From contig OZ218953.1 in assembly GCA_965112735.1 (NCBI GenBank), forward strand, positions 3,720,001 through 3,784,000: a stretch of 64,000 nt of DNA, given 5' to 3'. Source of the stretch: Phaeosaccion multiseriatum. Its lineage: Eukaryota > Protista > Ochrophyta, other classes. The notes beneath the pieces were generated by a model that saw only the letters and a list, made by a program, of their open reading frames with translations, was not told the DNA's origin and ran no database searches. This document shows, piece after piece, positions 8,404 to 55,242 of the stretch; within the stretch, counting starts at the first letter, position 1, and the number at the start of each line of letters is the position of its first letter. Both the position numbers and the translations under genes were made by a program.

Positions 8404-8434
<31 letters not shown>

Positions 8435-9678
8435 ACACACACACACACACTTGAGGTGACGTGTTGCTCACCTCGATCCGTCGCTGTTGAGGCAAATCTG
8501 CGCCAACTCGCTCTCATGTGCAGGGATGAGCGTGCTCTTTCTAATGTCGTAGAGCTCGACATTGAGGTGGCCCTTGCTGATGCCCGGGCAGGCCAGCACC
8601 ATGTGGCTGGAGTCGGGGCAAAGGGCCACGAGGCCGGAGTCGTTCTTGATGGTGTTGATCTGGTCCAGCAGCTTCAGATCGCTGCGGTGGAGGGGGGTGG
8701 AGGGGGAGGGTATGAGGAGGGGGTGAGGGTGAGGGGGGTGAGGGGGGTGAGGGGCTAAAGAGAGTCAACGGACACTCCGCAGTCTTAGAAGGAAGCTCCG
8801 CGCTTTAGACTGGACTGCATGCGCAAACAGAACCCCACGCAAACGTCCGCATGCACGCACGCACCTGAATCGGTACACGTATATCTTGAGCGCGAGGGCA
8901 ACGACGACTCTATCCCTGCGAAGCTTGACGGCCTTTACGTCGCTGCGGAAGGACAGCTGCCCGATGCAGCGGTTCTGGTGGTCGTCCCAGATCATTACCA
9001 TGTTGGGTGGATAGCGAGGGTTCCTGCCCCCCCCAACTAGGGCCAGCAGATTGCAGCGAAAGAGCATCTCTACGATGCCCACGCCTCCGTTGCTGAGCGG
9101 CGTGTTTGGGGAATGGAAATAGGAGGAGGAGGACGAGGAGGATGGAGAGCCATACATACAACACACAGGCTCGTCAGACAAAGCCTTGTTCTCCACTGGC
9201 TGCTGCTGCACCCACCTGAACACCCTGCGAAACGTCTCCTTGAAGGGGTCCACATTGTAGATGCGGAAGCCGTTGGCGGTGCCGCACGCAAAGCAGCCTG
9301 CTCGTGTTTTGGGTTTGGTCGGGGAAGGAGGGCACGGGCGGGGCGTGCAGGGAGCCAGTCAGGGTGGGTGGGGGACCGGGGGGAAGGGGGCTGCCTCCAC
9401 CTTGTCAATCTATCTCAGTTTTTAATGCCTTCTTCCCAATCCCTGGCTCAAGTCCCCTCTTCCACCCCCTCCCCCTAATCGTGCAGCGAGGTGTACAACG
9501 CAGTGTCCAGTCGCCAAGAGTCACTCCGTCTCATCGTCGCGTGTGCGGACCCCACCGCTTTGCCAAGAGAAAGCGCTCTACCTTCTACCTCTCTCCTACA
9601 GAGTCAGTTCGCACCGTAGTCTTGATTGAAGCCCACGAATTGAAGCTCGCTGCTGGCCTGATCCTTCGTCACCAGCAT
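6150..9678 (-). CDS. ATG18: ATG18/WIPI3-4-like PROPPIN (phosphoinositide-binding WD40 beta-propeller) with low-complexity C-terminal tail
   Basis: Exon 1 [21 protein letters not shown], then [75 protein letters not shown]...LQELRRG (LRRG lipid-binding motif), [13 protein letters not shown] and [12 protein letters not shown]. Confidence 0.93.
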
Positions 9679-18443: not shown

Positions 18444-21400
18444 CTACTGCGTTGCTCTGGACCCTGCCGCCGCCTCCGCCGTAATTGTCCCGAGTGACCG
18501 GCTCCCCTTTCTGGTAAGACCCTGCTGTGTGACGAGGCCCTGCTGTTGGCCAGGCTTCGTCATGAGAGTTGGGCCGGCCTCTTGCAGAAGTTGTACTGCC
18601 GCCACACTGCCGTAACGACTGCTGCTGCTGCTGCTGCTGCCCCCTCCTGCCGCCGAGCGTCTCTGCTGGAAGGCGTCCAGGCACTCTTGCACCACGCCCC
18701 ACACGGCAGCGTTGGCCTCGTGACTCACGTCCACACAGAGCAGGTCCCGCTCCATAGCAGACGACGACCCCCTCCCCCCCCGGCCCTGCCGCCTCCCCTC
18801 CTCTGCTATCTGGGCTTGGCCTTGCTGCTGCTGCTGCCGCTGCCGCCACTCCTCCGCTGCTGTTCCACCCCCTACCCATTGCACAAACTCTTGCTGGGAG
18901 CGGCCCTGGTGCACGGGTGGCGAGCTCAGCTCCGCAGGGGCGTTGTGGAAGAGATAGAGCCAGACCGTCGAGGGGCGCAGGAAGCCCAGGCAGGGCTCCG
19001 TGAGGAAGGAGAAGGAGAGACGCTGCTCAACCGGCTGTAGCACCAACTGCTCCTTGTCCCCCCCCTGGTCGGGCCTGACGGAGGCCTGAAATACCATTTG
19101 GTTGAATGCTTTAAGCTCGGCCATTGCGGCCTCCGCCGACAAGTGCGCTCCGCGCTGCACCTCCGACAAGAAAGTCGTGAGCGGCACCGCTGTATCACCA
19201 CCTGCTGCGGCACTAGTAGTAGGCTCAGGCCTGTTGTCTATCGGAGCCCCTCGCATCAGGGGCGACACCAGCAACTCGAGCTCCGCCAAATCCAGCTTGA
19301 GTTTGAGTTTGCCACTGTCCATGCCCACCCCCCCGTCGCCCCCCCCCAGTGGCCTGAGCAGCGCGGCGTGCGAAAGAAAGGAGCGCAGAAGCCTTGTGGC
19401 GAGCCTCTGCAGACACACCGCCGCATAGGGGCTTCCTTTGGCCTCCAGTGCCCCGACGTGCTCCCTCACAAGGCCGGCCACGCCCGCCTGCAGCTCTTGG
19501 ATATACACCGACGCAGCCCCAGCCCCTGCCAACTGTGATGGGGACTGTGATGAGGGACCCCCTCCACTGCCATCCCCCCCACCGCCCCCCGAGAAGCTCT
19601 CCCTGTGCATGCGTGCCATGAGCGTCTCCAGGCTCTGCGCAGCCCCCGCGAGGTACGGGTCACAGATGGTGCGGATGGCCAACTCGTCAAGGGCAGACAC
19701 ACAGTCGCGCAGCAGCCGCTCGCAGGCCTGCATATCCTCAGAGCGGGCCGCACCACCACCAGTTGGTGGTACAGCAACAGAAGCAGTAGTAGGCTCTCCC
19801 GTGCCTCCTTTGCCCTTCCCCCCCGCGCCTCCTTTGCCCTGCAGGGTGTCGGGTAGGGTGAGCAATGCCTGCCGGAGTCTGTGCACAAGGCCCAGCAGCT
19901 GCAGATTGTGCTCCTGCTGCTCTGTCTTCTCCCAAGAGGAGGCCCCGCCTCCACCCCCACCGGCGTCTATAGCATCCCCTCCCAGGCCCTCCCCTGCCCC
20001 CCCTGCACCTCCTACCCCACCGGCCCCTTTGCCGCCGCTCTTGGTCTTCGCCCCTGAGGAGTCCGCCTTGATGGCCTCGGACTTTAGTTGGACGATGCCT
20101 CCAAAGCTGTACGCCTCCGGGGATGTGTTGACCATATCCTCTACCTTGGTGCAAAGCAAACGCACGGCACTTAACACGCCACGCATGAGCAGCGGCGCGA
20201 GAGAGAAGTCCACGTCTCCATCTCCGACAATGTCGCCACCAACAACACCGCCTCCTTCCCTCTTTATGCCCGACGAAACCGACGAAGACGAAGCCGTGAC
20301 CTGCCTCATCTCAGCGTGTATGGCCCTCACCAGTGACGCCAAGTCGTGTCGGGAGGGCACTGCCGCTGTGTATCCGTGCACATGAGGGAACATCTGCTCC
20401 ACAGGCAGGGTAAGGCGGGCCAGACTCGCTGCAAGGAAACGGTCCCGCAGAGGGGCCAGCGATTGTAAAAGAGGGTGACTGCTGCTGCTGCTACTACTAC
20501 TGCTGCTGCTGCTGCCCAACAGTGGCAGGAGGAGCTGTCGAGAGCGAAAGACAGACATGAGGGGCGGGCGGCAACAGAGCGATGGTCGGAGAGGATGCAA
20601 GCAGCATGGGATAACAGAGGGACGGGTGGAGTGGGGGAGTGAGAATACAGGAGAAGAGAAGAGGGGATCCAAACTTGGACTCCATTCTCTCCCAAAAGAA
20701 CGAAAGCACTCCGTCACGAAGATCGCACCCCCTCCCCATTCTCACACCACCACCCCCACCGCACAGCATCGGCCCCACCTGTCCGTCTCCCTCTCCTCCT
20801 GCTACTCCCCTGACGGCATCCTCCTGCGCCTCCTCCTCCTCCTTCTTCTTCTCCTCCTCCTCCTCCTCCTCCTCCTCCTCCTCCTCCTCCTCCTCCTCCT
20901 CCTCCCCCTCTTCATCATCATCCTCATCATCCTCCTCCTCATCGTCGTCGCCAAGCATGCCCAGCTTGACCAATGCTGACCCCCCCAAGATGCCCTTGCC
21001 GATCCTTCCTCCTGCGTGTCCATGCCCCCCTTCCGCTTCTCTGCCGCCGCCCCCCCGAGACGACACTCTACTGGCACCAGCGCCACTGCCATCCGCAGTT
21101 GTTCCGGCGAGTCCCCGTGGGTTGAAGGCGGGGTCACTCAGCCTCTGTAGCAGCCGTAGAAAGGTCCTTCTCAGGAACGGGTACAGCTCCACCACAGTGG
21201 CCAGGGCTTGCGCGTTTATCTGTGCTGCTTCCGCTCCTGCCGCCCCTGCTCCGCCGGCCTTGGTGGGTGTTATCACACCACCCCCACCACCACCCCCACG
21301 GGCCCCGGGAGTGGTCGGTAGCGAGAAAGTCGCTGAGGAGAAACCCTTGTCAGGTGTCCCTGGCCCTCCTGCTGCTCCTGGACTTACCCCTCCTCCTGTC

Positions 21401-23162
21401 CCCCGCCCGCGCTCCCCCCCCCCGCCTCCTCCTAAGCCACCTCCTCCTCCTCCTCCTCCGCCTCCTCCGCCACCTCCTCCTCCTGCCCCTCCGGCGGTGG
21501 AGGAGGGCGAGCTCAGAGAGAGCAGGCGCACTACATTGTCGGCGATTGCCCTGCTCAACATCTCCAGAAAGGCCGCCAGCACCCCCCGCTGCATGCGCGC
21601 ACTTCGGTTGGCGACGACGACTTGGAGATACACCGCGTGCGTCACCGCGTCGGCCTTCTTGGCAAGGATGCGGTGCAGGTGACATGCCTGGGGGGGTGGA
21701 GGATGGAGGCGGAAGAATGGATGGGGGGGGGGGGGCGAGTGGGTTTCTTGAGAGAAGGAACGGAGAGAGTGCATTGCTTTGCACGAGTGAAGAAGCACTA
21801 TACCGACGTCCACCCACCATACCCACACCCACCTTCCCACTCCCACACCGCTACACACCCACCCCCACACCCATGTGCACACGCACACGCACGCGCACAC
21901 ACACGCGCGCACACACACTCACGTACACACAGATACCCAACCCCACACACCCACGCACGCACACACGCACCTGCATGCAACAATCGAAGAACGCAGTGCC
22001 GATGCCGTCCGAGTGCTCCGCGAACTTCATCCTCTTGTGCCTCGCGATAAAGGCCTCTTGCTCCTTGAGGGAAGTGCCCGCTGATGGAGTGAGCTCCACC
22101 CTCCCAAGCTTGGCCAGGAGGGTAGGCTCGAGGCCGCGGCTCCAGGCGGCGTCTGCCTGGTCCTTGAGGCGGGATACAGAGCCGCGCACACGCTCGGGCA
22201 GGCAGTGCAGGTTATAGAACACCTGATGATGGTGATGAGAGAGGAGGGGAGGGGAGGGGAGGGGAGGGGAGGCCACCGCATGGGTCCGTATATAATGGTA
22301 TAGGGATAGGGTGATAGGGATGCAGGGATGGATATGTAGGTACGGGAATGTCGAGTTTGCTACTTCGAGTTTGAGGCGGATAGAGAGAGGCGAAAGACTT
22401 CCATGGCCATAGAGGCCTAGGCATAGCCCTCCAAAACACAAACACACAAGAACCTTCCTCTCCTCGCCATCTGCAAGGAGGAGCAGAGCACCAACAGCCC
22501 CACCTCGAGGGCCCCGGCCACGTCGTTCTGATCGAGCGTCTTGAGGCCTCTTGAGAGCACCTCCGCCGCTGTGCGCCGCATGGCCTGAGACACGCTCCCC
22601 ACGTAGGGCCTGGCGGACAGGGTAGAGGCACATGGGCAAGGCAACGTGTGGGCAAGGAGGGAGGAGGGAGGGAGGGAGGGAGGGAGGGAGGGGAGGAGGG
22701 AGGGAGGGAGGGAGGGAGGGAGGGAGGGGAGGAGGGAGGGAGGGAGGGAGGGAGGGAGGGACACAACGGGTGGACGTAAGGGTAGCGTATAGATTCAGGG
22801 TACGGCGGTGCGCAGCGGAGGAAAGCTTGAGGGAGAGAGGGGGGGAGGGAGGGAGAGGCGGTGCGGGCCATGTAGCGCTCACTGGCAAGGCTCACTGACC
22901 GGCTGTGCTGTCCTCTCCTACTGGACTGACTACCCTTACCTCTCCGCCTCCACCACCAAGATACCCTCGAGCTGCGGCTCTGCCAAGAGGCACTCAAGCT
23001 CAAAGAGGTTCTTGCCCGCAGCCGACAATTCGTGCAGGTCCACTGACAGGTGAGGGAGGGAGGTCAAAGGTGGAGGGGTGAGAGCACGGCAGGATGGCAG
23101 ATAGACCTCAGGCGGACAGGCTGGCAGAGAGACAGACAGACAGGCAGGCAGGCAGGCAGGCA

Positions 23163-23203
<41 letters not shown>

Positions 23204-23338
23204 ACAGGCAGACAGGCAGGCAGGCAGGCAGGCAGGCAGACAGGCAGGCAGACAGGCAGGCAGACAGGCAGACAGGCAGACAGGCAGACAGGCAGGCAGG
23301 CAGGCAGGCAGACAGGCAGACAGGCAGGCAGACAGGCA

Positions 23339-23375
<37 letters not shown>

Positions 23376-23406
23376 ACAGGCAGACAGGCAGGCAGACAGG
23401 CAGGCA

Positions 23407-23447
<41 letters not shown>

Positions 23448-23458
23448 ACAGGCAGGCA

Positions 23459-23491
<33 letters not shown>

Positions 23492-24086
23492 ACAGACAGG
23501 GGCACAGAGAGACAGAGACAAAAAAGGAGAGAGAGGAGAGGGTTTCTCTGTTTCGCGCTGGATTCGAGGCTGCAAGGGCCGAGTAACCTCCTCCGATGGC
23601 CGCGGCCTATCCGAATGCCTCTCTCTCTCTCCTCTCTCTCTCTCCCTCTGTCTACCTGAGGCGTGCAGACCCCCCTGGGACCCCCTCCGCGTCGGTGAGC
23701 TGAGTCTGCCACTGCCCCCGCCCCCGCCGGATAGCCCCCCCCCCTGGGGCAGCAGAGCGAGGGCGGCGTCGTGCTGGCGAAGGCGCCTCACTGCTGATAA
23801 CACGCGGAGCACGCACTTTGGGGGGGGGGGGGGGGGGGATGCACACATTCATGCATTCATTCCACAGGCACAGGATGGGGAGGTATTCGAAGGGAGGACG
23901 GGCATAGTAGAAGGGTGGAGGTCCATACTGGCGCCCCACTATTCCCATGAGTGAGCATGGCCAGTACAAGGCACCGGCACTGCGGTTAGGCAGGTAGGCG
24001 GACAGACAGCGCCTCTCTACTAAAAGCTTCCTCCGTGCCTGTGTTGTGCACACTGACCAAACCCAAATATGTTTCCCACGGAGACT

Positions 24087-24121
<35 letters not shown>

Positions 24122-25163
24122 TACAAACAAGCCGCGCCTCCCCCCCCCCCTAACCCACCTTGAGGGCATAGGCCGCCTCCAAGACGCGCTCGAGCTGCAG
24201 TGTGCGCACCCGGATGCTCTCGAAAGGCTCGAACACCTCCCTCTAAGAGGGGCAGGGCATAGGGCAAGGGCAGCGGGAGAGGGCAAGTGAGTTACAGGTC
24301 AGAGGTTGGGGGGGGGGCGATATGCTCGTTTACACTCTCTCGTTCACTTCCTTCCCTTGTGCCTGTCGACCCTCTGCTTGCACAAAGGAAAAAGCCAGTG
24401 GCTGCATTTGTCTCTTCGCGCTCTGTGTTTTGTCCTCCATGTGCTATGCTTTGTGCAGCGCAGCCGACGAGCTGCATTTGTCCTTTGTGCTTTATGCCTT
24501 ATGCAGCTCAGCTGGCGGACTGACCTTAATCTTGGCCAAGGCCCGCTTGAGGTCGCGCACACCCATGCGCAGTGTGTCGCATTTGCTGGCCAGCTCCGTC
24601 ACGCCGCTCACGCTGCCCAACAGGTCCGCCTCGTTCTCGCAGATGTGGTTCCGGATGGCGGTCTCAATGCGGGCGATGTGCGCGGACATGCTCTGTGGGG
24701 GGCAGGGGCAGAGGCATGGGGCAAGGGTAGGGCCAAGAAGGGAGGGAGTGAACGTTACCGCGCCTTGGGGCCGTCCGTGCCCATTTGTCGCAGCTTCGGG
24801 GAGGAGAGCCCAGCCACCACCCCAGCAGTAGCAGCAGGGGCAGCAGCAGGGGCAGCAACAGGAACAACAGAGGATGCTGCAGCACCGTAGCCCTACCTCG
24901 AGAGTCTCCTCTGCCTGACTCGACATTGTTCCATTTCCAGGACCAGCATTCCCACTGCTGCCGTTGTGAAGAACAGAAGAAGCTCCTGTAGCTGAGCCTC
25001 CAGCAGCAGAGTCTGCCGAGGGCGCGGGAGCCAGCAGAACCTTCTCTGTGTCCTGAGAGACAATCTTCCCCGCAAAGGAAGAGGGATCAAACTCCGCCTG
25101 CCCGAACTCGCGCGTGAGAGGGTCTACCTCAATGGCAGCCAGCAGGTCCCGAGCCTCCTGCAT
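18444..25163 (-). CDS. COG5: Conserved oligomeric Golgi complex subunit 5
   Basis: N-terminal EFDPSSFAGKIV; IETAIRNHICENEADLLGSVSGVTEL; FEPFESIRVRTLQLERV; ELSAAGKNLFELECLLAEPQLEGILVVE; LSRGLKTLDQNDVAGALEVFYNL; C-terminal ASVYIQEL, FLSHAALLRPL..SGKLKLKLDLAELELLV and APAELSSP. Confidence 0.9.
22655..22760 (+). repeat. (GGGA)n purine tract, read as a polypyrimidine tract in a COG5 intron
   Basis: Continuous gggagggaggga run. Confidence 0.9.
23125..23500 (+). repeat. Compound (GCAG/ACAG)n tetranucleotide microsatellite in a COG5 intron
   Basis: About 370 bp of caggcaggcagacagg. Confidence 0.95.
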
Positions 25164-25329: not shown

Positions 25330-28300
25330 ATGTTCGGCCGAAAAAAGGGGCCAAAGGTCAGTCTCAGCAGTGGCGGCGAGTATGGGCTTAACTGCGCTTG
25401 GAGCTTCGCACCTGCTCCTCCTGATCATTTCTCCATTCCACCTTCCCGCTCTCTCCCCTTCGGTAACCCTCCTCTCTTCACCCTTGATCTTCTACCCGAT
25501 CGCCTCTGACCCTCCACCGCATTCTCCTTCTTTCGTGCAACCCCTCCCCCTTCATTTCTTCTCTCCTGCCTTGCTCCTGCCATGCCTCCCTCCCTCCTTC
25601 CCTCCCTCCCTCCCTCCCTCTCTCCCTCTCTTTCCTTCCGTCCCTCCCTCCCTCACTCCCTCCCTCCCCCCCCCCTCTCTCTGTCTCCTTTCTTCCTCTC
25701 ACCAACAGGAGGATGCCCCTGCCCCTGCCCAGGCTGAACCTGTCCTGGGCAAGGTCAATACCAAGCCTATCAAAGAGCTTGGGGAGGAGGTCAACGTTTT
25801 AGATGAGGTATGATCCAAACACAACACAACTAGGACGCTACTAGAGATCTTCACTTCTCTCCAACACAAATACGACCCTGCCATAGATCCTCACTTCTTC
25901 TCTCCAGCCTCCACCCCGTCGCTGAATCCTTTCATCCCCCACCCCCGTCCTCCCCTGCTACCCCTGCCTGTGGCTCCGCCGCCGCCCCCCCCCCCTTCCC
26001 TCCCTTATCCTGCCCTGCCCTGCCCTGCCCTGCCCTGTGCCCCCGGGCGGTGTGGTCCATCCGCCCATCAGGTGCTGGAGACAGAGGTTCGGCCGTTCCT
26101 GGACCTCATCGACTCTCTGAGGGAGTTCGGCATTCAGGTAGACGCTCCTGCAGTGTAAGGCCTCTCACTCGTTCGGTCCTGCTTGCTCCCCCTCACACGG
26201 CCCTCCCACAACCCTTTCGACTGCCCTTACACTACCCTTCCGCTGCCCTGCGCTGTCCTTTGCGTCCTCCTCCATCTGTCTTGGCAGGATGAGGTGTCGC
26301 TGCCCCAGATCGCAGTAATGGGAGACCAGTCCTGCGGAAAGTCTTCGGTCTTGGAGGTGAGGGAGGGATGGCAGTAGATGGGGAGAGCTGCCGTGTCATA
26401 CCATCCCTTGCGGTGGGTTGGTCTCTCTCTCTCTCTCTCGCTCCGCCATGCTCCTCCTTCCATCACACGCTGGAGTGACCATCTTGACTGCCGCCCCTTC
26501 CCATGCCCAGTCTGCTCAGTTTCATTCCATTCCCGTCTCCTCAACCCGCCACCTCCCCCAACTTCACCCTGCGTCGCCATATACTGCCTTCCGACCACCA
26601 AACAGGCGCTGTCGGGTATTCAGTTCCCGCGGGGGAGCGGTCTCGTGACGAGGTGCCCTGTGCAGCTGGTGATGAAGAGGGGCAAGAAGGGCACACGTAA
26701 GTAACTCTTACGTAATATACATCAATGAGTGTAGCATATGTGGGAATGGAAGGCAGGAGGGCGCTGTGGCGCCGAGTTAGCTCACATCCACAGAGTGAGC
26801 GAGCTGTTCCGACGGACCACTCATTCATCCCTCCCCCCCTCTCTCCCTCTCACTCCCTTTCCCCCCTCCCTCGGGTAGCCTGGCAAGGGCGAGCGACGGT
26901 ATCGTGGGCAGGGAAGGAGCAACCGGGCGGCTCAGGGGTGAGTGAGTGAGTGTCCAGGGACATACGACCACCACAGCTGGCTAGAACTGAAACTGGAACC
27001 GAGAGAAGGGGTTACCGAGGGATAGGAGCATGTGCGTTTTGTATTCCCTCTGTCTCTCTAAGGCATGTACTCCTTTGCTTGCCCGAAACTAAAGCGAACA
27101 AAGCTTAAAAAGAAACGTAAAATATTTGCTTGTTGCCCCATACGTGGCATCCGCACAGGTGGTCTCCTCTCCGGACAAGATGCGCGCCGTGATCGAGGAG
27201 CTCATGAACGAGCTGTGCGCAGGGGCCGCCAACGGATTCAGCCACGATAGCATCTGCGTGCAGGTCACGAGTCCAGACTGCCCCGACCTTACTCTCATTG
27301 ACCTACCAGGTACACGCTGTCGGGTGGTGGAGGGGAGGCGAGGCGAGGGGAGGGGCTGATGGCATAAACCATATTGGTGTATCACCAACCGCTGCTGCTC
27401 CTGCTGCTGCTCCTGCTACTGCTGCTTTTCTATATTCTGCACCCCCCTCCAGGAATCGTGCGGACTGCCGTGAGCGGGCAGACCACGGGGGTTATGAGCG
27501 AGGTGAGTAGAGTGAGTCGAGAGGAAGGTGGCGTTGATGTTGGTGCTACGCGGCGAGATGACATCCGTCGCCAACAAGCCGTTCCCCATCTCCCTAACCA
27601 CCCCCCTCAAGCAGAGCTGTGGTAGCTCTCTCTCTCACACACACTGCGAGAGTGAATCATCCTAGCAGCGATCGTAGACGCGATGGCAAGCTTGTGAAAG
27701 CAAGGGAAGGCCTACCACCTGCTGCATCGGCACTCGTACACCCCTTTGGCCCTGACCCTCAGCCCAATTGTCCTCCCAACTGCCGTACGCCTCTATCCGC
27801 CCCTCTGTGCATTCTGCGTTCCCGTGTGCCTCTAACCACAACCAGGTTAATGGGCTGATCGAGGGCTTCCTTGAACGTGAGCGCACCATCGTGCTGGCCA
27901 TTGTGCCCGCCAATCAGGACGTTGCCACTGTTGACATACTCGAGAGGGCCAAGAGAGTGGACCCCGAGGGGGACAGGTACGCACATGGAGGGTGTATACA
28001 CGCTGGCCCATGTATGGCACGTGTGTGAGGGGGGGCTGTGGAGTGTGGGTGGATGGGTGGGTGGGTGTGTGGGTGTGGTGGGTGAATGGGTGTGGGTGTG
28101 GGTGGGTGTTTATGTGGGTGGGTGGGTGGGTGGGTGGGTGTTTATGTGGGTGGGTGGGTGGGTGGGTGGGTGGGTGGGTGTGTCCCGTCGTGTGGATAAT
28201 GTGCTGAAGTGATGCTCCAACGAAGTGCTCACCCCAAGCACACTTGAGTGATACATTCGCTGCGCAGACTCTGAAAGAACCTTCCATTCGTGTGTGTATG

Positions 28301-29936
28301 TGTTTACATGCGTATACATATATTACATGTATATATGTATGTGTGTGCGTGCGTCTGTATATGTGTTTGTGTGTGTGTATGTGTGTGCGTGCGTGGCGCA
28401 GGACCATCGGAGTGCTGACCAAGCCTGACTTGATCGGCCCCGGCAACGAGGAGGAGGTGCTGCAGACCCTCACCAACAAGTGAGTGCAGCGCGAGTCCCC
28501 CACACTCAGTACCTCACACTCAGTACCTCACACTCAGTACCTCACACTCAGTACCTCACACTCAGTACCTCACACTCAGTACCTCACACTCAGTACCTCA
28601 CACTCAGTACCTCACACTCAGTACCTCACACTCAGTACCTCACACTCAGTACCTCACACTCAGTACCTCACACTCAGTACCTCACACTCAGTACCTCACA
28701 CTCAGTACCTCACACTCAGTACCTCACACTCAGTACCTCACACTCAGTACCTCACACTCAGTACCTCACACTCAGTACCTCACACTCAGTACCTCACACT
28801 CAGTACCTCACACTCAGTACCTCACACTCAGTACCTCACACTCAGTACCTCACACTCAGTACCTCACACTCAGTACCTCACACTCAGTACCTCACACTCA
28901 GTACCTCACACTCAGTACCTCACACTCAGTACCTCACACTCAGTACCTCACACTCAGTACCTCACGGCCTCCTGAGTGACTCACACACAGCGTCTGGTCA
29001 CACGGGCGGTCCAAAGAGTGAGCTCCGTCGCCAGCCGACGCCCGTGGTGTGCTCTGCCTTTCTTTCTTCTTTCCTCCCTCCCTCCCTCCCTCCCTCCCTC
29101 CCTCCCTCCCTCCCCATCCCTTTGAGTGGTATGCTATGGGTAATGAGCATGCTAAACGGAAACTGAAACTCCCCCACCTTACCACCCCTACTTTGCAGGA
29201 GAAAGTACCTGAAGCTCGGCTACGTGATGGTGAAGAACCGCAACCAGCAGCAGCTCAGCAAGGGCATGTCCCTGGAGGAGGCCCACCAGGAAGAGGTATG
29301 CGCCAGTTGTGAATGAAGAGAGGGGCTCCCCTTATTAATGGTGGGGAGGGGGTTCCTTCCCAAGGAAGGGTGGCCTTGAGCGGTTGAGAAGCAACCCCGG
29401 GATGGAGGCTGGATGCTCCCTACTCCCCCCCCCTCCCTCCCTCTCACCCGGGGGCATTACAGAGAAGGCGTCGTCCTACTTTCTCACATGAATGACCACG
29501 TGGCTGTGTTGCCCCAAACCCCGTTGCATGTGAAATCGCGCACGCACGCGCACGCGCACACACGCGCACACACACGCACTCACACACACAAACACGCATA
29601 CGTATGCACACGCATACGCTTACGCACACACGCGCAGCTGTCCTTTTTCAAGAACCACGGCGTGTTTAGCGATGTGGACCCCTCGCTGCTGGGCATCAAG
29701 AGCCTGACAGACAGGCTTGTGGCGCTGCTGCTCACGCGCATTAAGACCGCGCTGCCCAATATGAAGTGGGAGATGCAGGAGAACCTCGCCTGTGAGTGGG
29801 AGTAGGGGGGGGGGTGCCAGCCACCTCAGCGCTTAAGAGAAGAGACGCTTATCGCTGTCAGTGTCCTTGTTGTTGCCTCTGCCGCTGACCGTGTGCTTCT
29901 CTGTTCGTCGTGACTCTCCTCTCTCTCCTCTCTCTC

Positions 29937-29967
<31 letters not shown>

Positions 29968-30340
29968 GGCGACAGATGTGGAGAAGGAGCTGCACCCTCT
30001 GGAGAGGAACTTGCCCCGCACACCCATTGACAGAATAAAGGTACGCACGCACGCACGCACGCACACACGCACACACGCAAGCTCGCATGCTCAAAAAGGC
30101 AAAGGACAACGGCAAAGACCCTTATGCTGTCAACTGCCTCCAGCTCTTTGAGGATACTGTATTGACATACTGTATTGACCATTCGAACCCCCCTGCCCTC
30201 CTCCTCCCCGTGCTTCAAACCCGACTGTGCCCCGACTGTGCCCCGACTGTGCCCCGACTGTGCCCCGACTGTGCCCCGACTGGGTTGCGACCGGGGATTG
30301 CCCGCACGCACACGTGGCGCCTTACGCGGCCCCTTTTGAC

Positions 30341-30408
<68 letters not shown>

Positions 30409-33400
30409 CGTGCTCAGGGCCTGATGCAAATCGTGACGGAGTTCACTCGGCTGCTGCGCTCCTCCATCCAGGGGGAGTACAAGGACGCGGTGCTCAACTC
30501 CTCCCCCGACCTGCGCATCAGGTGAGTCAGTACTCAAGGGCGTCAGCTTTTGTCAGGGATGCGATGGGATGTCAGGAGTCAGTCAGGGCGGGTCAGTCAG
30601 GGAGTCTTAAGATGCCAGCAAGGGGGGCAATAGACGGGTAGGTAAGGGGACCTTCCTTGCTTGCCTTTCTCTCCAAGGGCTCACCCCCCCCCCCTCCTAC
30701 TGTGCAGATCGATGGTGGACCGCTCGTTCCGCGAGCTTCAGCACCAACTGTCCTCCCTCAACCCCGGCTTCGAGCATCCTGACTTCCCGAAGGTGGGCAC
30801 TTAGCATCATTACGTACCTACACTATGTACATACAATACCGCGTCTTTCGTTGGACTGCGCATACGCCTATGCTTTTTGTCTTGGCCTTTCACTTTCCAT
30901 ACGCCTCTACTTTGTCTTATCTTTGACTGCCCATACACCTTACCACCGTGTCGGGCGGAGACAGGTCCTACAGGACGAGCTGCGCGCCCACCGGGGAAGA
31001 GAGGTACGTTACTATACGTACGAGTCAGAGAGAGAGGAAGGCAGGACCAGGGGGGGGTGGAGTAGAGTTGGGTGGGGTGGTGTTCATTTCTCTCCTCCGT
31101 GGGAGGATATACTAGCCTAGTCTAGCTCGCTCTCTACTTCTTTTAGTCTAGCTCTCTCTCACACGCCTAGTCTAGCTCTCTCTCTATCTCGCTCTCTCTC
31201 TCTCGCTCTCTACTTATACTCGCCTAGTCTAGCTCTCTCTCTCTCTCGCTCTCTACTTCTGTCTTTTTTCTCTCTCACTCTCTCTCGCTCTCTACTTCTC
31301 TTTGTTTTCTCTCTCAATTTCTCTCCCTCTCTTCCCCCCCCCCCCCCCTTCCTCTCGCTTACGCTCTCCAGCTGTGCGGTATCGTCAACAGTCAGTTCTT
31401 TTACGTATTCATGCTGCAACAGGCAAGTGTGTGTGCGGCACTCCAGCCAATGGTCACATACCAATGGTCACAATAGGTCAATGGTCACATGTCTTGCGTG
31501 ACCTCACGTGCCCTTACGTGGCTTTACGTGGCTTTACGTGCCCTCGCTCCTTCCCCCCCCTGGGCAGGTGGAGATGTTCCGTCCGCAGGTGGAGAAGTGC
31601 CGCAACGACTGCTGCAACTTCGTGCTCAACGTGGGGAACAGGCTCATTTCTCAGGTCAGAAACCTAGAGCCTTGAGGGCACGTGAGAGTGGCGGATGGTC
31701 CTCAGAGCCTGGCCATCAAAGTTTGGACCTCAGAGCCTGTGTGTCCCTCACAGCCTGGCCCTTCGGGGGGGGGGGGGAGGGCTCCTCGAGGCTACGCTGG
31801 CCTGTCCTGACCCCGCTGTGCTGTACCGCCTCAAGACAGGACCGGGTGGGCACCGCTGCAGTACTGTCACCCGCCCTCCATCTGGCCGCTTCCTTCCCTC
31901 CCTGCCTCACTCCCTCCCTCCCTCCCTCCCTCCCACCCACCTTCTCTCCCTTCCCTCCCTCCCACGCGCCAGGTGAGCCCTCAGTACCCGGGCCTGGTGG
32001 AGCGGTTTCAGGTGAGATGGCGGCAGATGGCAATAGAAGGCAGCAGCAGATGGCACTAGAGGACTGCAATGCTCGCGGTCTTAACGGATTGGCGATTGAA
32101 GAGTGAAGATCGCCACAGTGCTTTCCTCCAAATCTATTGCTGCTTTACTACTTGCCACAGTGCTTTACTACTAGCCACAGTGCCTTTACTGCAAGTCCAT
32201 TGCTGCTTCACCTTTACAAGTGCTTTTTTGTGTGTCTTTTTTTGTCTCACAACTAGCGCTCACTCACTACCCCACATGCGTTTGCCCAATGCCCGCAGGA
32301 GGTGGTGTCTGAGATGGTGGACGAGACAGCGGAGAAGCTTCAGCCAGAGCTGGACCAGCTCTTCGACAAGGAGAGGAATCCCTTCACGGAGAACCAGGTA
32401 AGTGCGTTGATGGTACACACGGGGATGGGGGATTCTGTGACTTCTGATCAGTGAGGGGCTTGAGTGGAGGGAAGGGGTTGTGGGACGAATTGGCTGCTCG
32501 CTCGATCGACAGATTGATTGATTGATTGGTTGGTTGGTTGGTTGGTGGATGGAATGATTGTTTGACGGATTGGTTGACTGACTGATTGATTGGTTGACTG
32601 ATTGATTGGTCCCATCGATAGGTTCGAACGAGTGACTGATGGCGCTCCATTGCGACCCCCATGCATGCTTTGGGCCTCTTTCTCTGCTCTGCTCTGCTCT
32701 GCCTTGCTCTGTGCCCCATGTGCATGTAACTGGCGCCTCCCTGCCCCATCCGCCGCCTTCACCTGAGGGCAGGACCTGGTGGAGGCAATGAACCGCGTGA
32801 GGTTTGAGAGGTTCGACAGAGTGCTGCATCAGGTGCGTGGGGGGCAGGGGGCGGAGAGGAAAAGAACCCGGTCCTGCTTGACAACTGACGTGTGTACTTG
32901 ACACACTCACCTGCTCCATGATGCTCCCATCCCGTGGGCCGTGGCCTCAACTCTGCTGATCTCTCTCCTCGCTTCCTTCTCTCTTCGAAGGTGATGATCG
33001 AGGCGGGGGACGAGCCCGAGGGGGGCGGAGACGCGAGCGACACCTCTGAGCTGAAGGAGTGGGTGCTCGACAACTTGGGCACATGGTACAGGTACAGCCA
33101 CGGAGCCAACGCCACCAGCAAGGTGAGGAGGAGGAGCCGCAACTAACGCAACTAGTCTGGCTTGCATCCTCTCGGCCTTGTCGACCCTCTGTATCGATCA
33201 CTGTGTCGACCATGTCGACATGGGCGCGGTAATCGCGATTTATGACAGCAAAATCTCGATATTTCCTCTCAAGTCGCTCGCCTCCTCCATCTCTCTCTCT
33301 CTCTCTCTCTGGCCCGCTCCATCTTTCCCTCTCCATCGCTCTCTATACATGTGTGTGTCTGATGTGGTGCCCTCTGGTGGCCTATCCCCCCCTCCCTCCC

Positions 33401-36400
33401 CCCCTTAGGTGGAGGACATGAGCACGATACTGCAGGCGTACTGGCGGGTGTCGAGCAAGCGCGTGTGCTCCAACGCCTGCATGCTGTTGGAAACCAACCT
33501 CTTGGCGGAGGTCACCAACCAACTTGAGACTCACCTCCTCACCCTCACGCAGGTGAGGAAGAGAGATGGAGTGTGACGATGAGTGTTGCAAGGTGCTGAG
33601 CCGGGCTGGGCTCCGGTGTCTGTTGCTCGCCTTGATGGGTGGGTGGGTGCCCCCTGTGTGAGTCGTTTCAGAGTCAATCAAGTAAGCCGACTCAGCCCCC
33701 CCGCCGTCGAAGGACAAGCAGTCTCTTTTTTGCCACGCTCGCTCGTGGTCGATGTGAAGTGTTATCAAACAACCGCTGACCTTGCCCTGCCTTGCCTTGT
33801 CCTGTCCGACCCGATGTCCGATATACACAAAACGATTCGGGCCTCCTGTCTGACCCAACAACCCCACTCCCTTTGATCCAACGCGATGGGATAAATCGTT
33901 CGACGGACTGACCGACTGACTGACCGATGGATGGACATCATATGGGCACAGACCATGAGTGAAGAGGCCGTCATGGCGCTGTTCCAGGAGGACGCCGCCC
34001 TCGCCTCTCGTAGGGAGAAGCTGTCGGGCAGGAGGAGCCGCCTCAGGGCAGCGCTCAAAGAGGTGGACACGATTGCGCCGGAGGTGGTGGCCATGAGCAA
34101 GAGACAAGCCAAGCGAAGTGGTCAGTAAGGCGGGGGTACTGGGTGTGTGGTTGGGGGTGGGTGGGTGCGTGCGTGCGTGCGTGTGTGTGTGTGTGTGAGA
34201 GGGATGTGGTGTAAGGAGAATGGGAGGGAGGAGGGAGAGAGGGAAACTAGCTGTGGAATCCGCCTCTCCTCCTCCTCCTCCTCCTCCTCATTCCTCATCC
34301 CCACCTCCCCTTCTTCTCAGACTTGGAAACCCTCCTCCTCCTCTCCCTCCTCCTCAGGATCGGGTAGCGCCTCTGACAGCACGCCCACATCGGAATTTTC
34401 GTCGCCGGACAACGTGCTTCGCAAGCCCAAGCCCGCCTGGATCACAAGCTCGGAGTCGGCGCCAATAGGTTGGGAAGGGAGAGAGGGGGCACCTTGAACC
34501 GTCCACTGCCTTCTCACGCTCTGTCCCCTTGGTCTTTATTGGCATCGGCCCCTCCTTTCCTCTCTCAGGAGGGACGGTTCGTAGCGCAGCGACCATGGGA
34601 GGAAGCGCTGGCCTCAGCGCCAGTCCCAGCCCTAGCCCCAGCTCCAAGCCCCTCCGGAAGAGGTTCGGTGGCAGGGGTTCGGCGCTCTCCAGCGGCTCTG
34701 CTGACTCGTTGGTAAGGAGAGAGGGAGGAGCTTCATAGAGGCCTAGGCAGGCCTAGGCAGGCAGGCGGGGAGAGAGGGGGAGCAGGGGGAGGGAGGTAGG
34801 GAGGTGGGGAGGGAGATAAGAGCTGCATGGGGAGAGACAGAAGAAGCGAGGAGTATGCACTCTAAAGGCTTTAGTACCTGCGTCTCGGCCTATCCAACAC
34901 GTTAATGGCCCTCCTCAATCTGCCCTGCGCTGCCCCTTCCTGCCCTGCCCTGCCTCCCACCTCTCATCCTGGCAGGTGTTCAAGTCACAGCCCGAGAAGG
35001 CATCAGAGGCGGCGCAGGATGGAAGCTTTGCCACTTTTGTCTACACTCGTGATGGAGACAACGGCGGCCTCATCTACTGGCTGGGCACCCGCAGTGAGTG
35101 TAATGTCTTGCCCCCCTTACACCCCCGCTCTCCCACTTTCTTCCTACATGCACGTTACTTGCACACGCACGCACGCACGCACGCACATGAAATGAAATGC
35201 ATCGCCAAAGAGTATCTCCTCTCTTCAGCCCAGACCTCACCTCCTCCGCTCGAGTGTGTGCCCTCTCTCCCCCTCAGCACCTCAACGAAGCCCCCCCACC
35301 CCTCTCCCCCGCCGTCCACTGCCATCCTCAGAGCACTCTCGCAAGTTCGACAACCCTGCCCTATCCGGCCTCGTTGCCGTGACTTCGAGCGGCATGCAGC
35401 AAGGCTCGGAGGCCTCCCTCGTATCCCGGAAGCGGAGACCCACGTGTACCACCGACAAGCCCGACGCCTGGCTCTGCATCGACGTGGGTAACAAGCAGAG
35501 GTGGGTGCGTGCGTGCGTGCGTGCGTTCGTTCGTCTCGATGTCGCTTTGAAAGGAAAGCGGCGCTGGGGCTGGGTAGGAAGAAGAAGTGGGGTGTCCCTC
35601 GTACCTCTCCGCCCCATCGTTTGTCGAAGTGCATCCCCTTTTCTTCTCACTCGTGCCGTGCCTTTTCTTTTCAACTCTCTTCTCTCCTCCCTGCTCCCCC
35701 CTCTCTCTGTCCTCCCACCCACCTCTTCTCCCCTCCTCTCCCCTCCCTCCTCTCTCTCTCGCTCCCCTCCCTCTCTCTCTCTGCCCCCCGTTCTCTCCTC
35801 CACAGCTTGTGCGTCACCAATTACTCCCTCTGTAACGGCAGCGATAGGGAGGGCTCAGACCTCGTCAATTGGGTTCTGGAAGGGTGCGTTTCGTATGTCT
35901 CTTCTCCGAGTCAGTCGTCCATGCCCTATTTGGCCCACCCCACCCCCGGCCTTTGAGAGAGAGAGAGGGGCTCACTGAGCCCGCTATGCGTCGTTCCAGC
36001 TCCAGAGCCCGCTTGACGCCTCCTCCTGACACCTCACGCCCGCCACGACTTACTTTTTATACCCTTACGTATGTACCTACTCTGCGGCCCTCCCCTGCCC
36101 TGTCCTGCTCTGCCCTGTATCACCAACTGCCCTGCCCTGCACAGCTACGACGACTCCATCCGCATGTGGATAATCCTCACACACACGCGGGCCGCGGGGC
36201 CTTCCCCCGTGCTGCCCTCCCCCTACGGAGTGGGTTCGTGGCCAGTGGACAGCATGGGGAAGGTGCGAGCGTCTGTCCGCCCCGTGGACACAGAAATAGC
36301 GTGCCTTCTGTTTCCCCCCCCCTCTATAGTCTGCGTTCCTCCTGCTCCCTTCAACAAGTCAACGATGCGCCCTTCCCTCCCTCCCCCGCCCCTTACTGGT

Positions 36401-36589
36401 GGTGGTGGTGCTGCTGCTGCTGTTGCTGCTGCTGCTGTCCCCCCCCCCCCCCTCTCCTCCTGTACTCCTACCACAGAGCTTCCGCTTCATCCGAGTCCGC
36501 TCCACCGGCCCCAACGGCTCCGCCGGTCACGCCCTCCCCATCTGCGCGATTGAGCTCTACGGCAAGCTGTGGTGCGAGCCCGAGCTATA
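25330..36589 (+). CDS. Mx/DRP4-like dynamin-family GTPase with putative C-terminal HECTD1-type SUN/discoidin-like domain (about 31 exons)
   Basis: VRPFLDLIDSLREFG (Mx-type BSE helix); G1 LPQIAVMGDQSCGKSSVLEALSG; G2 FPRGSGLVTRCP; G3 DLTLIDLPGI; G4 TIGVLTKPDL; LGYVMVKNRNQ; stalk HRGRELCGIVN; GED ILQAYWRVSSKRV...FQEDAALASRREKL. In-phase exons 34358-36589 then encode GDNGGLIYWLGT..FDNPALSGLVAVTSS..AWLCIDVG..LVNWVLEG..FRFIRVRSTGPNG..AIELYG. The dynamin part (25330-34128) is near certain; the fusion is less so. Confidence 0.85.
28500..28965 (+). repeat. Homogeneous 14-bp minisatellite (CACTCAGTACCTCA) x about 33 in a dynamin intron
   Basis: Identical head-to-tail units with no spacers, starting about 20 bp after the donor of the TKPD exon. 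Confidence 0.97.
30220..30281 (+). repeat. 11-bp tandem repeat (CCCGACTGTGC) x about 5.5, intronic
   Basis: cccgactgtgc cccgactgtgc repeated. Confidence 0.9.
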
Positions 36590-36799
36590 GCAGTGGTGGG
36601 CATGAGCAGTCAATAAGCTTAACACATGCATTATATTGCGTCTATGATCGACCTACGCCTTTTTGACTTGCTGATTGATAAGCAAAGCCGCGGCGTGTCT
36701 ATTCTCAGTGGCCAGTTTCAGTTTCAGCGCCAAGGCGTCTTACACTATTTACATGCACCCTCGCTTGTCTGAGTGGCGCACTCAGAGATCGCACACACG

Positions 36800-36973: not shown

Positions 36974-38383
36974 CTACGCCCCTACTGCTGAGGCATCGTC
37001 GTCGCTAAGAATGTAAAGATCATCATCATCATCATCATCGTCGTCGTCATCGTCAGTGTCACTTCCTCCGTCAGGTTGGGCTTCCCTCTTCATCTCTCTC
37101 ATCGCTCTGTTTGCCAGTGCTCCTCCTTGTCTTTGTTCTTCTCTTTGTCGATCCTCAGCAGCCATGGGAGGGCAAAGCGGCCTCAAGCCATCCCCACCTC
37201 CGTCTTTATCACCACCACCACCACTACCACCACCACCACCACCACCACCACCACCACTACCACAAAGGGGTGCCTCTGGAACTGCGGAGACAGCCTCCTG
37301 GGCAGCAAACACGATGTCTGCCATGTCATCCAAGGGCCGCCCACTGACCTCTCCACCTTCCTTCCCCACCCGCCCTCCGTGCTGGTCGTCCCCCTCTTCT
37401 TCCCCTCCGTCATCACAGAGGAGGGCGGCGGAGGCCCGTCGCTCCGTCTTCCACCGCCAAAAAGAGGCGATTTTCGAGGCGGAGAGGCGTCTCTTGTGGC
37501 GCAGGGCCTCGTGGAGCAGCCTGCTCACCATACACATTGCACATTGCATGCGTGGGGTGGGCAGCAGCAGCAGTAGTGGCCGTGGCCGTTGCAGGGGAGC
37601 AAGCGAGAGATGAGGTGGTTGAGTGAGGTTGGGAGGCACGAGGGCAAAGAGAGAAACGGAGGCCCAACAACTCCAAGAAGAAAAGAGTCCCCTCGCTTCC
37701 TTGACAAGAGCTGCGACGACGCACCGCTTGTCGAAGAGCCTCTTTTCTGCCTCCCTCGTCTCGAGGAGGTCCAGGGTGTCCCGCCTGAACAATCGCATCT
37801 TCGCGTCCCTCTCCGCCTCCTCTGCCTCAATCTGAGCCCGTAATGCGTTGCAGTAGCGCTTGCGGCCGATTCTTCCTCGCAGCAGAGACTGAATTACGAC
37901 CACGGCAGCAGCGGTCGTGGACAAAGTCTCATCTTGATGAATCGAATTGGCTGAAGCGAGATCAAAAGAGAGCAGAGAGACGTGAGGCTTCAGAAGCGGA
38001 CGAATAGAGACAAAAGGGAGAGACAGACAGAGAGAGAGGAAGAGACGGGGATAGAGAGGAGACAGAGAGAGGAAGAGACAGAGAGAGAGAGAGGAAGAGA
38101 CAGAGAGAGATCGAACGAGAGAGAGAGAGGGGGAGAGGGAGAGAGGGAGGGAGAGAGAGAAAGAAACTGCGTAGGACACTTCAGTGGAAGAAGTGGGGGT
38201 GCACACTCCGCACTCTGACTCACCAATTCCGCTGTCGAGTCTCGAGAGTTTCCCGATCACCTCTGCCTTCCTCTCTCTCTCCCGCGCTGCTATGGCGGCA
38301 TTGATTCCCGCGTCTCCAGCACTATCGTCTTCCTCCACTTCGTTGGGCACAGCGTACTTGTGCCTTGCGGCTGCTCTGACCAT
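36974..38383 (-). CDS. IQ-motif (calmodulin-binding) coiled-coil protein with acidic tail
   Basis: VVIQSLLRGRIGRKRY fits IQxxxRGxxxR; a second degenerate motif ASKIASFWRWKTERR; introns with (CT)n tracts; ends in poly-D. Confidence 0.65.
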   Translation of the reverse strand: MVRAAARHKYAVPNEVEEDDSAGDAGINAAIAARERERKAEVIGKLSRLDSGIGESECGVCTPTSSTEVSYAVSFSLSLPLSLSPSLSLVRSLSVSSSLSLCLFLSLSPLYPRLFLSLCLSLPFVSIRPLLKPHVSLLSFDLASANSIHQDETLSTTAAAVVVIQSLLRGRIGRKRYCNALRAQIEAEEAERDAKMRLFRRDTLDLLETREAEKRLFDKRCVVAALVKEARGLFSSWSCWASVSLFALVPPNLTQPPHLSLAPLQRPRPLLLLLPTPRMQCAMCMVSRLLHEALRHKRRLSASKIASFWRWKTERRASAALLCDDGGEEEGDDQHGGRVGKEGGEVSGRPLDDMADIVFAAQEAVSAVPEAPLCGSGGGGGGGGGGSGGGGDKDGGGDGLRPLCPPMAAEDRQREEQRQGGALANRAMREMKREAQPDGGSDTDDDDDDDDDDDDLYILSDDDASAVGA

Positions 38384-38537
38384 CTTCAACGGCCTTCAAG
38401 AACGAAAGAGGAGACAACCGTCCTGATAGGGGAGTTGGTGCTCCACTACATTCACAGTTGGCTATTCCCTTCAAGTCTCCCTCTCTTTCTTCTCTTCTTC
38501 CTTCCTGAGGGAGAAGCGATCTCCCGTAGAAGCAGAG

Positions 38538-40727: not shown

Positions 40728-41662
40728 CGAGCATTGACTTGCGAGGAGTAGGAAGATAAGAGATGGAACAAGAGGATTAAGGAAGAGGGGCGGTGAGACG
40801 GGCCAAGGGGGGCTTTCGTCCACAGCCCTTCTCTCTTCATTTGCACAGCGGCACAGGCGGCTCTTCCAATCATCCTTCGTACTGTGTTCCTAAGTACATT
40901 TTATCTCGCGGAGTGCCCATTTTGTCCTTTCTTTGTTGGCTACCTCGTCCCTGCCTCGTGCAGGCAAGTGAGGACGGCACTTGCACTACCTCGCGGCTGT
41001 ATAGTCCGTGTTGTATCTGATAACTTCTCTGTAATGCAAGCGCCTTCCTCCGACTGTTGCTTCCTTCACATTCCATACCCCCTCTTCCTTCGCGCCCACC
41101 TTCCTACGCCAAGAAGCTCACCGGCGTCGAGCGTGCGGTGGTGCGGTGCTCCCGCCATCGCTTGCTTGCCCCTCCCTCACGAGCCACAACAGGACAACAG
41201 ACCTGGCAACTCAAAGAGCGCAGTGTCTTCCTGTGAGGCGGTGCTACACTAAGCCTGACTGTTCTCCTGATGCTGTTCGACCCCCCTTCTGGACAGGGCC
41301 TGTTGTGAGTGTGTGCGGGCTATGCAATCGTCGTCGCCAGGCGTCTCACCACTGGTCACCTCCTGCCATGTGAGCGGCGCTGGTGCTGGCGCGGGAAAGC
41401 GACACTCACAAGAGCCGACCGACCACGTTTTCCTCCTCATTCTCGGCGCCCCTCCTCCGCGTATAGACCAGCGCGTTGCCCAACTCATGTTTTACTCTAC
41501 ATCTCCGGCCCCGTGGGGGCCAGCCAAGTCATCGGCAGTTACCTCTCCTCCCTTCTCTCGTTGGCCCCGATGCAGGGGCCCCATGTTCATCATATCTCAT
41601 GGAATGAGTGGAGTGCATGTGTATGTGCGCATGCGTGTGTGCGTGGGCGTACACTTTCTTCG

Positions 41663-42365
41663 TTAGTGCTTTCGCAACACGGCCTGCAGGTCCCGCTCGA
41701 GGCGCTCGATGGCAATGTCCGCCAGGCGCTGCTCAGGAGTCACGGGGGGCAGCACGAAGCGGTTCGCGCAGTGCGGGCACACGCCATCGTTTTCGTCGAA
41801 GATGCTGGGAGTAGGAAGGGAGAGGAAGACGCCGGGCGGGGAGGGGGGTGCGCTTTCAGATGCTGGAGACCAACGCAATTTGGCGTTACTCCGATCCCTC
41901 TCGATGCTCTGCCTACCCGCCCTGCCGCCCCGAGGCCTCCCTACCCACACACGAAGCACGCACCTGAGGTCCTTGGTGAAGATTCCTTTGCACTGAATGC
42001 AGCTGAAGGCCACCATATTGGTGTGCTTCTGCTCGTGCGTCTCACACTCGTCATGGCACTCCGGGCACTCGTACCACTTGCCGCAGCACGGTGACTGGAT
42101 GCTCACCTGCACAGGCACACAGCAGCAGCAGCAGCAGTAGCAACGGGCCAGCAGAGTGTCAGCAATGATTCATGCGCCAGACACGGGGCCGCAGGAGCTA
42201 CACGAGCACTCGACGAAGGAATTGCAAAGCCGTTGAGGGAAGGGGGTAAAGCAGGGCTGGAGAGAGACAACCCCAGAGCAGAAAGGCCCTTGGTAATAGG
42301 TCCTGTGGAAATGCAAAGGGGTAGGCGACTCGGAATACCTGGACATTGAGTATATGCTTGCACAT
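41663..42365 (-). CDS. Small CHY-type zinc-finger protein (3 exons)
   Basis: MCKHILNVQ|VSIQSPCCGKWYECPECHDECETH...FSCIQCKGIFTKDL|IFDENDGVCPHCANRF. Confidence 0.88.

Positions 42366-55204: not shown

Positions 55205-55242
<38 letters not shown>

Follow-up and report, generated by a model that had tools for sequence, protein, structure and literature searches.

Mx-like dynamins, among them human MxA and MxB and a second eukaryotic lineage, with fungal MxF1, described in the available part of Langley et al. 2025 (PMC11789081), consist of a GTPase domain, a stalk and a GTPase effector domain (GED), without a pleckstrin homology (PH) domain or membrane anchor. Whether the non-animal members serve in antiviral defence or housekeeping is treated as an open question in the Discussion of that paper. 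Here we describe a gene of the ochrophyte alga Phaeosaccion multiseriatum located within a 64,000-nt stretch of DNA (assembly GCA_965112735.1, contig OZ218953.1, forward-strand positions 3,720,001 to 3,784,000; hereafter the window). Its predicted product likewise has GTPase, stalk and GED, and differs from described Mx-like dynamins in that its subfamily adds a conserved discoidin-like domain past the GED and, in brown algae, has a short and conserved L4-like loop. Two orthologues carry database names: Ectocarpus siliculosus CBN76986.1 (UniRef D8LJA2, ‘Mgm1 homolog’; 65% identity in the dynamin part and 60% in the domain) and Tribonema minus KAG5178451.1 (‘Mgm1-like protein’; 60% and 57%). 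Ochrophyte Mx paralogues with a UBA (Ectocarpus ‘Mx1’) or PDZ (Aureoumbra) domain have a dynamin core 38–49% identical, and their interaction domain occupies the corresponding C-terminal site; their module is a different one and they fall in other branches of the dynamin tree. The fusion is best read as marking an Mx subfamily that ochrophytes have conserved and whose C-terminal module would serve in recruitment and be exchangeable.

The gene model was rebuilt by coordinates (window 25330..36590, + strand) as 31 exons that join into a 998-aa frame without internal stop. A search for relatives with exon 9 yielded 64 proteins from 72 candidates, and residues 801–998 of the predicted protein matched the C-termini of 13 of these (40–63% identity, expectation values (E) 2e-39 to 4e-84). 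All 13 are dynamins of 857–1004 aa, which bears out the preliminary description of an Mx-like dynamin fused to an extra C-terminal domain. Nor is the fusion confined to a single alga, as orthologues are present in public databases under the name Mgm1. Among the 27 relatives of at least 700 aa, 13 had the discoidin-like tail, four UBA (P0002, P0003, P0004 and P0010) and three PDZ (P0017, P0019 and P0034) where the discoidin-like domain sits, and seven no recognised domain. The named carriers of the fusion are Ectocarpus, Nemacystus, Cladosiphon, Pylaiella, Undaria, Laminaria (partial), Ascophyllum, Chrysoparadoxa, Tribonema, Chrysophaeum and Aureococcus; the same domain order thus recurs across brown algae, a xanthophyte, Chrysoparadoxa and pelagophytes. 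These fused relatives are mostly gene models. In metagenomic data, locus L001 encodes everything from GTPase through domain in a single intron-free and stop-free frame of 924 codons, GED and domain share one frame in five of ten loci, and the domain is present in nine of the ten, the tenth ending at a contig end. Brown-algal genes are intron-rich, and P0014 (974 aa), which is nested among brown algae, lies on a contig of no more than 3,645 nt; it probably represents a spliced transcript. Taken together, these sequence comparisons support one fused protein comprising the dynamin part and the extra domain. Sequences labelled as those of the foraminiferan Bolivina argentea also include a fused orthologue (P0031); it groups with algal proteins, and the set probably contains algal material. 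Searches with single exons recovered no relatives (exon 28, 0 of 27 candidates; exon 12, 0 of 33).

The tree built from 38 dynamin parts places the window protein in a clade of 16 rows (100/99) drawn from brown algae, Tribonema, Chrysoparadoxa and Phaeothamnion, and all 13 full-length rows of this clade are fused. A further clade unites six pelagophyte-type fusions and three partial rows. A single origin of the fusion has a support of 38 in this tree, which neither shows nor rejects it, and the two fused branches are not sisters in the GTPase tree of PMC11789081, as far as that tree was available. In a tree of 97 domains, for which 75 of 133 non-fused rows were kept (the best-scoring ones), the Mx-fused copies share one branch with two short proteins of unassigned context (Shimodaira-Hasegawa-like approximate likelihood ratio test 98), a result compatible with one origin of the Mx-fused domain. 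No neighbours were seen to be shared between the window, with its COG5-like upstream gene, and the loci checked (seven locus frames scanned); a methyltransferase adjoins the fusion in loci L007 and L009. Viral contigs scanned with two orthologues, an approach that senses close relatives only, yielded none (0 of 36 pattern matches in one scan and no match in the second).

The predicted order encoded by the gene is an Mx-type GTPase, stalk, GED, linker and a beta-sandwich of about 175 aa. The introns, of 100–719 nt and with matching phases, comprise 29 of the GT-AG type and one GC-AG, the latter after exon 17 (31422-31423), where the frame requires it and homology backs it. Exons 1–2 (25330-25356, 25709-25807) encode a short N-terminal extension without a hydrophobic membrane anchor. 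Because this extension is not kept in relatives, the start of the gene model is its least certain part. The first bundle signalling element (BSE) helix and the GTPase domain follow in exons 3–11 (26072-26137, 26288-26356, 26606-26696, 26879-26937, 27159-27309, 27453-27502, 27846-27976, 28402-28479, 29199-29295), with motifs G1–G4 intact and 73% identity to Ectocarpus CBN76986.1. The stalk (Dynamin_M) is encoded by exons 12–21 (29638-29791, 29976-30040, 30418-30521, 30708-30792, 30965-31003, 31372-31422, 31568-31654, 31973-32011, 32299-32397, 32773-32832), and exon 22 (32991..33122) holds a short L4-like loop at the stalk tip, with no PH domain, and then the start of the next stalk helix; we take this loop to be the equivalent of loop L4 of MxA by its position. 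Exons 23–24 (33409-33552, 33952-34120) encode the GED and last BSE helix. Per-exon Pfam matches identified GTPase, stalk and GED in exons 3–24; given the shortness of the exons, most of these matches stayed under the cut-off.

The tail is spread over seven further exons, all of which the preliminary description had listed and all of which are present with AG/GT borders and matching phases. Exons 25 (34358..34468) and 26 (34569..34711) encode S/P-rich and S/G/P-rich linker, respectively. Exon 27 (34976..35093) encodes a helix, conserved within the brown-algal/xanthophyte branch, and then the start of the discoidin-like domain at about 35030. The domain continues through exons 28 (35332..35500), 29 (35806..35883) and 30 (36145..36262) and ends in exon 31 (36477..36590) with the stop codon TAG at 36588-36590. 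The exon coordinates noted earlier were right to within two bases (35330 becomes 35332, 36144 becomes 36145, and 36476-36589 becomes 36477-36590, with the TAG ending at 36590) and the motif series quoted with them is present in the translation; the domain measures about 175 aa plus the preceding helix rather than about 160 aa. Exon 25 has phase 1-1 and can be omitted in frame, giving 961 aa, as long as the brown-algal orthologues (950–961), while exon 26 restores the frame and cannot be omitted. The window linker spans about 94 aligned residues versus 45–59 in CBN76986.1 and KAG5178451.1, unless exon 25 is skipped. Across the family the linker is poorly conserved, at 45–95 residues, and in a full-length model of the Ectocarpus orthologue (predicted template modelling score (pTM) 0.50) its predicted local distance difference test (pLDDT) is below 50, which is compatible with a domain flexibly tethered to the dynamin. 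Intron 10, the longest at 719 nt, contains a perfect tandem array with a 15-bp unit in about 30 copies (window 28509-28966).

The affiliation of the GTPase with Mx, proposed in the preliminary description, was supported over one with Drp1, Vps1 or Mgm1 by similarity ranking and by the published tree of its orthologues. The orthologue P0015 scored 281 bits against MxB and 270 against MxA, followed by dynamin-1 (175), Vps1 (161), Drp1 (137), Mgm1 (105–127) and OPA1 (80–83), and the first structure matches of the full-length Ectocarpus model were MxB and MxA. Neither a PH domain nor a transmembrane segment was found in the stalk/GED part, and all 16 proteins compared lack a hydrophobic segment (best 19-residue hydropathy 1.25–1.53; no dedicated presequence predictor was run). 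Both named orthologues are in the data set of PMC11789081. In the portion of its IQ-TREE file available (placement read by eye from parts 2–3 of 5), they form a sister pair (97.8/100). The stramenopile-cryptophyte-red-algal group to which this pair belongs (96.6/99) joins fungal MxF1 (96/98) and adjoins animal Mx, a placement which fits the ‘second lineage’ in the available text of that paper. The trees of PMC11789081 were built on the GTPase domain only, and those of the present analysis include no non-Mx outgroup. These comparisons support grouping the window GTPase with Mx and not with Dyn/Drp1/Vps1, Mgm1 or OPA1. The 64-kb window holds one Mx gene.

Pfam did not recognise the extra domain: none of the 13 fused proteins scored above the curated cut-off (best match F5_F8_type_C, E 0.17), nor did any of the five domain exons. 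Exon 28 alone gave no match in Atlas and no sequence match in PDB, and the domain profile likewise had no PDB sequence match. This profile, built from the 13 fused domains and the five window exons, retrieved 6014 representatives at E ≤0.001, of which 118 of the best 150 were scanned (95 short, 23 long). Domains F5_F8_type_C, F5_F8_type_C_2 or Sad1_UNC were recognised on 69 of the 95 short and 18 of the 23 long proteins. BTB and/or BACK accompanied the match on 15 short ones, and the long ones included proteins with SPRY (six) or UBC (two), kinases (three) and ankyrin proteins (two), as well as IBR and B-box. The members of the domain family are thus mostly intracellular interaction proteins. 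Against a BTB-BACK protein the profile reached a probability of 99.8 (34% identity over 171 columns), and Atlas returned F5/8C clusters at a cosine of 0.97. The domain of P0014, which is 63% identical to that of the window, was modelled as a galactose-binding-like beta-sandwich (pLDDT 94.8, pTM 0.90). Its fold matches were CBM32 (Z 12.9, root-mean-square deviation (rmsd) 2.6, 127 aligned), muskelin (Z 12.4, rmsd 2.6, 135 aligned), SUN2 (Z 11.2, rmsd 3.4), F-lectins, neuropilin b1, DOC/APC10 and factor V/VIII C2. By profile and model, the tail is a predicted domain of the discoidin / F5-8C / Sad1-UNC clan, and the kinship with domains of BTB proteins suggested earlier was supported. It shares its fold and profile homology with the discoidin/F5-8 type C (PF00754), Sad1_UNC (PF07738) and NedA-like (PF22633) domains of BTB-BACK-discoidin and ubiquitin-pathway proteins; the Mx-fused copies differ from these in forming their own branch, in scoring below the Pfam cut-offs and in the replacement of six family-conserved residues.

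The preliminary description had called the tail a HECTD1-type SUN/discoidin-like domain. The latter part holds; a specific tie to HECTD1 is conjectural, and no HECT domain occurred among the 118 matches scanned of the best 150. HECTD1 is described in the available parts of PMC11043113 and PMC3673628 as having a Sad1/UNC (SUN) domain with a presumed capacity for protein interactions. This domain belongs to the same Pfam clan as the matches of the window domain, which it may resemble at the motif level. A nuclear-envelope SUN protein was rejected as an identity, given the lack of a membrane segment and a SUN2 fold match no better than that of other clan members. Fold matches to viral proteins were generic discoidin matches (8–19% identity) and were not used. 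Two of the profile matches, P0094 and P0152, are long ankyrin/TRP-like channel proteins with several discoidin-type copies, P0094 having SPRY and kinase domains in addition.

Conservation was compared piece by piece. Between Ectocarpus and seven other brown-algal proteins, identity was 91–100% in the GTPase, 88–100% in the L4-like loop, 81–98% in the domain and 60–100% in the linker. Between the window protein and five pelagophyte-type proteins, the domain (43–50%) was more conserved than the stalk (33–38%). The ratio of nonsynonymous to synonymous substitution rates (dN/dS) in the pair L001/L002 was 0.161 for the GTPase, 0.129 for the stalk, 0.159 for the domain and 0.60 for the linker; in the pair L007/L009 it was 0.03–0.07 in four pieces, with 0.05–0.07 in the domain pieces. 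In a 206-member cluster, the 12 members listed differed at one of 174 domain sites. The discoidin-like domain is thus under purifying selection like that on the GTPase, and on these pairwise tests its pattern would suit a module with a fixed ligand rather than a participant in an arms race. Little turnover is expected for housekeeping roles, according to the Discussion of PMC11789081 in the part available.

Dynamin stalks oligomerise, and contact with the membrane or target is made by the tip of the stalk, which bears the PH domain in dynamin and loop L4 in MxA. Any segment past the last BSE helix is attached at the GTPase head, and it is there that dynamin-1 has its recruiting proline-rich tail. 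Our preferred reading, to which we would give roughly an even chance, is that the C-terminal discoidin-like domain of this Mx-clade dynamin, predicted to be cytosolic, is a recruiting arm whose conserved partner belongs to the alga and is probably a protein. On its flexible linker, the domain would fill the recruiting role and bring the GTPase to a defined site, where the oligomer would constrict or sequester the target with GTP hydrolysis. The task would be constitutive, such as trafficking or quality control, and possibly useful in defence too; ochrophyte Mx paralogues would have specialised by exchanging the module for UBA or PDZ. Counted in favour of a host partner are the occurrence of the same fold in the peptide- or protein-binding muskelin, APC10/DOC, neuropilin b1 and SUN and the closest sequence relatives, which are domains of BTB-BACK and ubiquitin-pathway proteins.

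A number of observations weigh against a host protein partner or against the fusion itself; those on the splice junctions are taken up further below. The fold leaves the ligand unnamed, because glycan- and protein-binding matches all lie within about two Z units, and the top structure matches are carbohydrate-binding modules (CBM32 and F-lectins, Z 12–13), level with the protein-binding muskelin. Fused domains are more basic than their relatives (median net charge +3, n=22, versus −1, n=242; related sequences and not independent), and so would suit acidic lipids as well. With six family-conserved positions replaced in the Mx-fused subfamily, the usual ligand of the family need not carry over. 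The L4-like loop of the pelagophyte pair L001/L002 has a dN/dS of 0.77 over 56 codons, compatible with relaxed or diversifying selection, and pairwise dN/dS counts are blind to selection at single sites. Lastly, conservation would also be expected of a sensor that recognises an unvarying trait of viruses.

That last point leads to the alternative we find possible though doubtful, an antiviral sensor-effector: the domain would bind something that algal viruses conserve (a glycan or protein of the capsid, or the virus-factory membrane), and the Mx oligomer would trap it. The orthologues lie inside the Mx-like clade in the available part of the PMC11789081 tree, the best solved relatives are MxB and MxA, the discoidin fold binds glycans in many proteins, several Mx paralogues with differing tails coexist in ochrophytes, and the L4-like loop is fast in one pelagophyte pair. 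Set against this, the extra domain is conserved without sign of an arms race and the brown-algal L4-like loop is 88–100% identical; in MxA, loop L4 is the rapidly evolving target-binding surface (PMC12047444, in the part available). The ‘sensor-effector antiviral’ reading of the preliminary description was therefore left unsupported, the domain and GTPase having a dN/dS of 0.16 each in one pair. We hold as a similarly tentative idea that ochrophytes own a modular Mx immune toolkit in which interchangeable sensors at the C-terminus (discoidin, UBA, PDZ) direct one antiviral core. Its discoidin form would be an ancient one-protein sensor-effector for an invariant giant-virus glycan or protein, or for a host mark set by infection. 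An invariant target of this kind would account for conservation instead of fast evolution.

Somewhat less probable still, and in our view unlikely, is that the domain is a membrane or glycan anchor in place of the missing PH domain, binding acidic phospholipids as factor V/VIII C2 does, or a cytosolic glycan. The fold is common to factor V/VIII C2 (Z 10.8–11.1) and to CBM32/F-lectins (Z up to 13.1), the net charge is positive with basic residues specific to the subfamily, and the stalk tip has no PH domain. In the general dynamin architecture, however, the site past the last BSE helix is opposite the membrane-facing stalk tip. Furthermore, the nearest sequence relatives are in BTB-BACK and ubiquitin-pathway proteins, and solved lectins are only 6–21% identical (CBM32 and F-type lectin 10–17%).

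At this locus the junction of the fusion has weak points. With a splice-site matrix trained on the donors of exons 1–23 (own scores 5.3–14.0), the donors at 34120, 34468 and 34711 scored only 3.4, −2.7 and −0.5. If the intron after 34120 were left unspliced, exon 24 would read into a TAA at 34126-34128, giving a 717-aa plain Mx, and an ATG at 34595, in exon 26, is in frame with the discoidin-like domain. The locus could then hold two units, a plain Mx ending at this stop, five bases beyond the donor, and a separate discoidin protein starting from that ATG, or the short form could be the main isoform. We consider this very improbable. All 13 full-length rows in the clade of the window protein are fused, the acceptors at 34358 and 34569 are strong (12.1 and 10.6), and the sequence after 34128 has intron-like microsatellites. 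Exons 25 and 26 are without homology to relatives; their codon scores (0.31 and 0.07, respectively) both exceed the 95th percentile (−0.18) of 145 intron windows, so that exon 25, although it precedes the ATG, has a coding-like score when read in the frame of the fusion. Four sequencing runs over the locus covered introns like exons, with no splice joint and no variant letters; they behave as DNA of at most one sample and lend no independent support.

Least probable of all is that the gene is an algal Mgm1/OPA1, a dynamin that fuses mitochondrial inner membranes. The names of CBN76986.1 and KAG5178451.1 imply this identity, and the available part of PMC3097184 lists Ectocarpus locus Esi0024_0159 as Mgm1/Opa1 (identity with CBN76986.1 not checked). 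Against it, none of the 16 proteins has a hydrophobic segment, their N-terminal extensions are short, MxB at 281 bits exceeds Mgm1 and OPA1, and the published tree, in the part available, puts both orthologues outside Mgm1/MidX and OPA1.

With the name Mgm1 thus contradicted, the Ectocarpus ‘Mgm1’ record needs correction. Within a known family, the dynamin plus discoidin-tail architecture is real, conserved and apparently undescribed; a wrong name and the Pfam miss have concealed it. We found no description of it in the literature searched, mainly openly available papers, in agreement with the earlier remark that it was not known from the literature, and accession CBN76986 occurs in no main text of that literature. 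The terms ‘discoidin’, ‘fused’ and ‘additional domain’ have zero occurrences in the main text of PMC11789081, and the gene is not dealt with in the available parts of PMC3879662, PMC3499364 and PMC10280142 (‘discoidin’, 0 occurrences). A discrete, confidently modelled domain of about 175 aa offers a handle for finding the ligand in model algae. Ectocarpus and Aureococcus are such models, with known giant viruses. Together with the UBA and PDZ paralogues, the fusion suggests that Mx-clade GTPases diversified via swapped C-terminal interaction modules, unlike animal Mx.

The Mx gene lies head to head with a COG5-like gene (window 18444-25163, −), the likely starts being 166 bases apart. Its matches to COG5_N (E 7e-4) and COG5_C (E 1.5e-3) are both below cut-off, and its far end was guessed from open frames. 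Tail to tail with the Mx gene is a 473-codon open frame (36974-38395, −) that looks IQ motif-like by eye and has no Pfam match. Ordinary eukaryotic neighbours include a CaMK-like kinase (1300-4500, +), an ATG18/WIPI-like WD40 gene (7100-9400, −) and a TBC-domain gene (52000-55800, −), all recognised by eye from open frames, and a CHY zinc finger (41660-42170, +; Pfam E 2.5e-5). At 52544-53546 (−), a coding-like stretch occurs in two or three near-identical copies about 200–300 bases apart, reflecting either tandem duplication or an assembly artefact.

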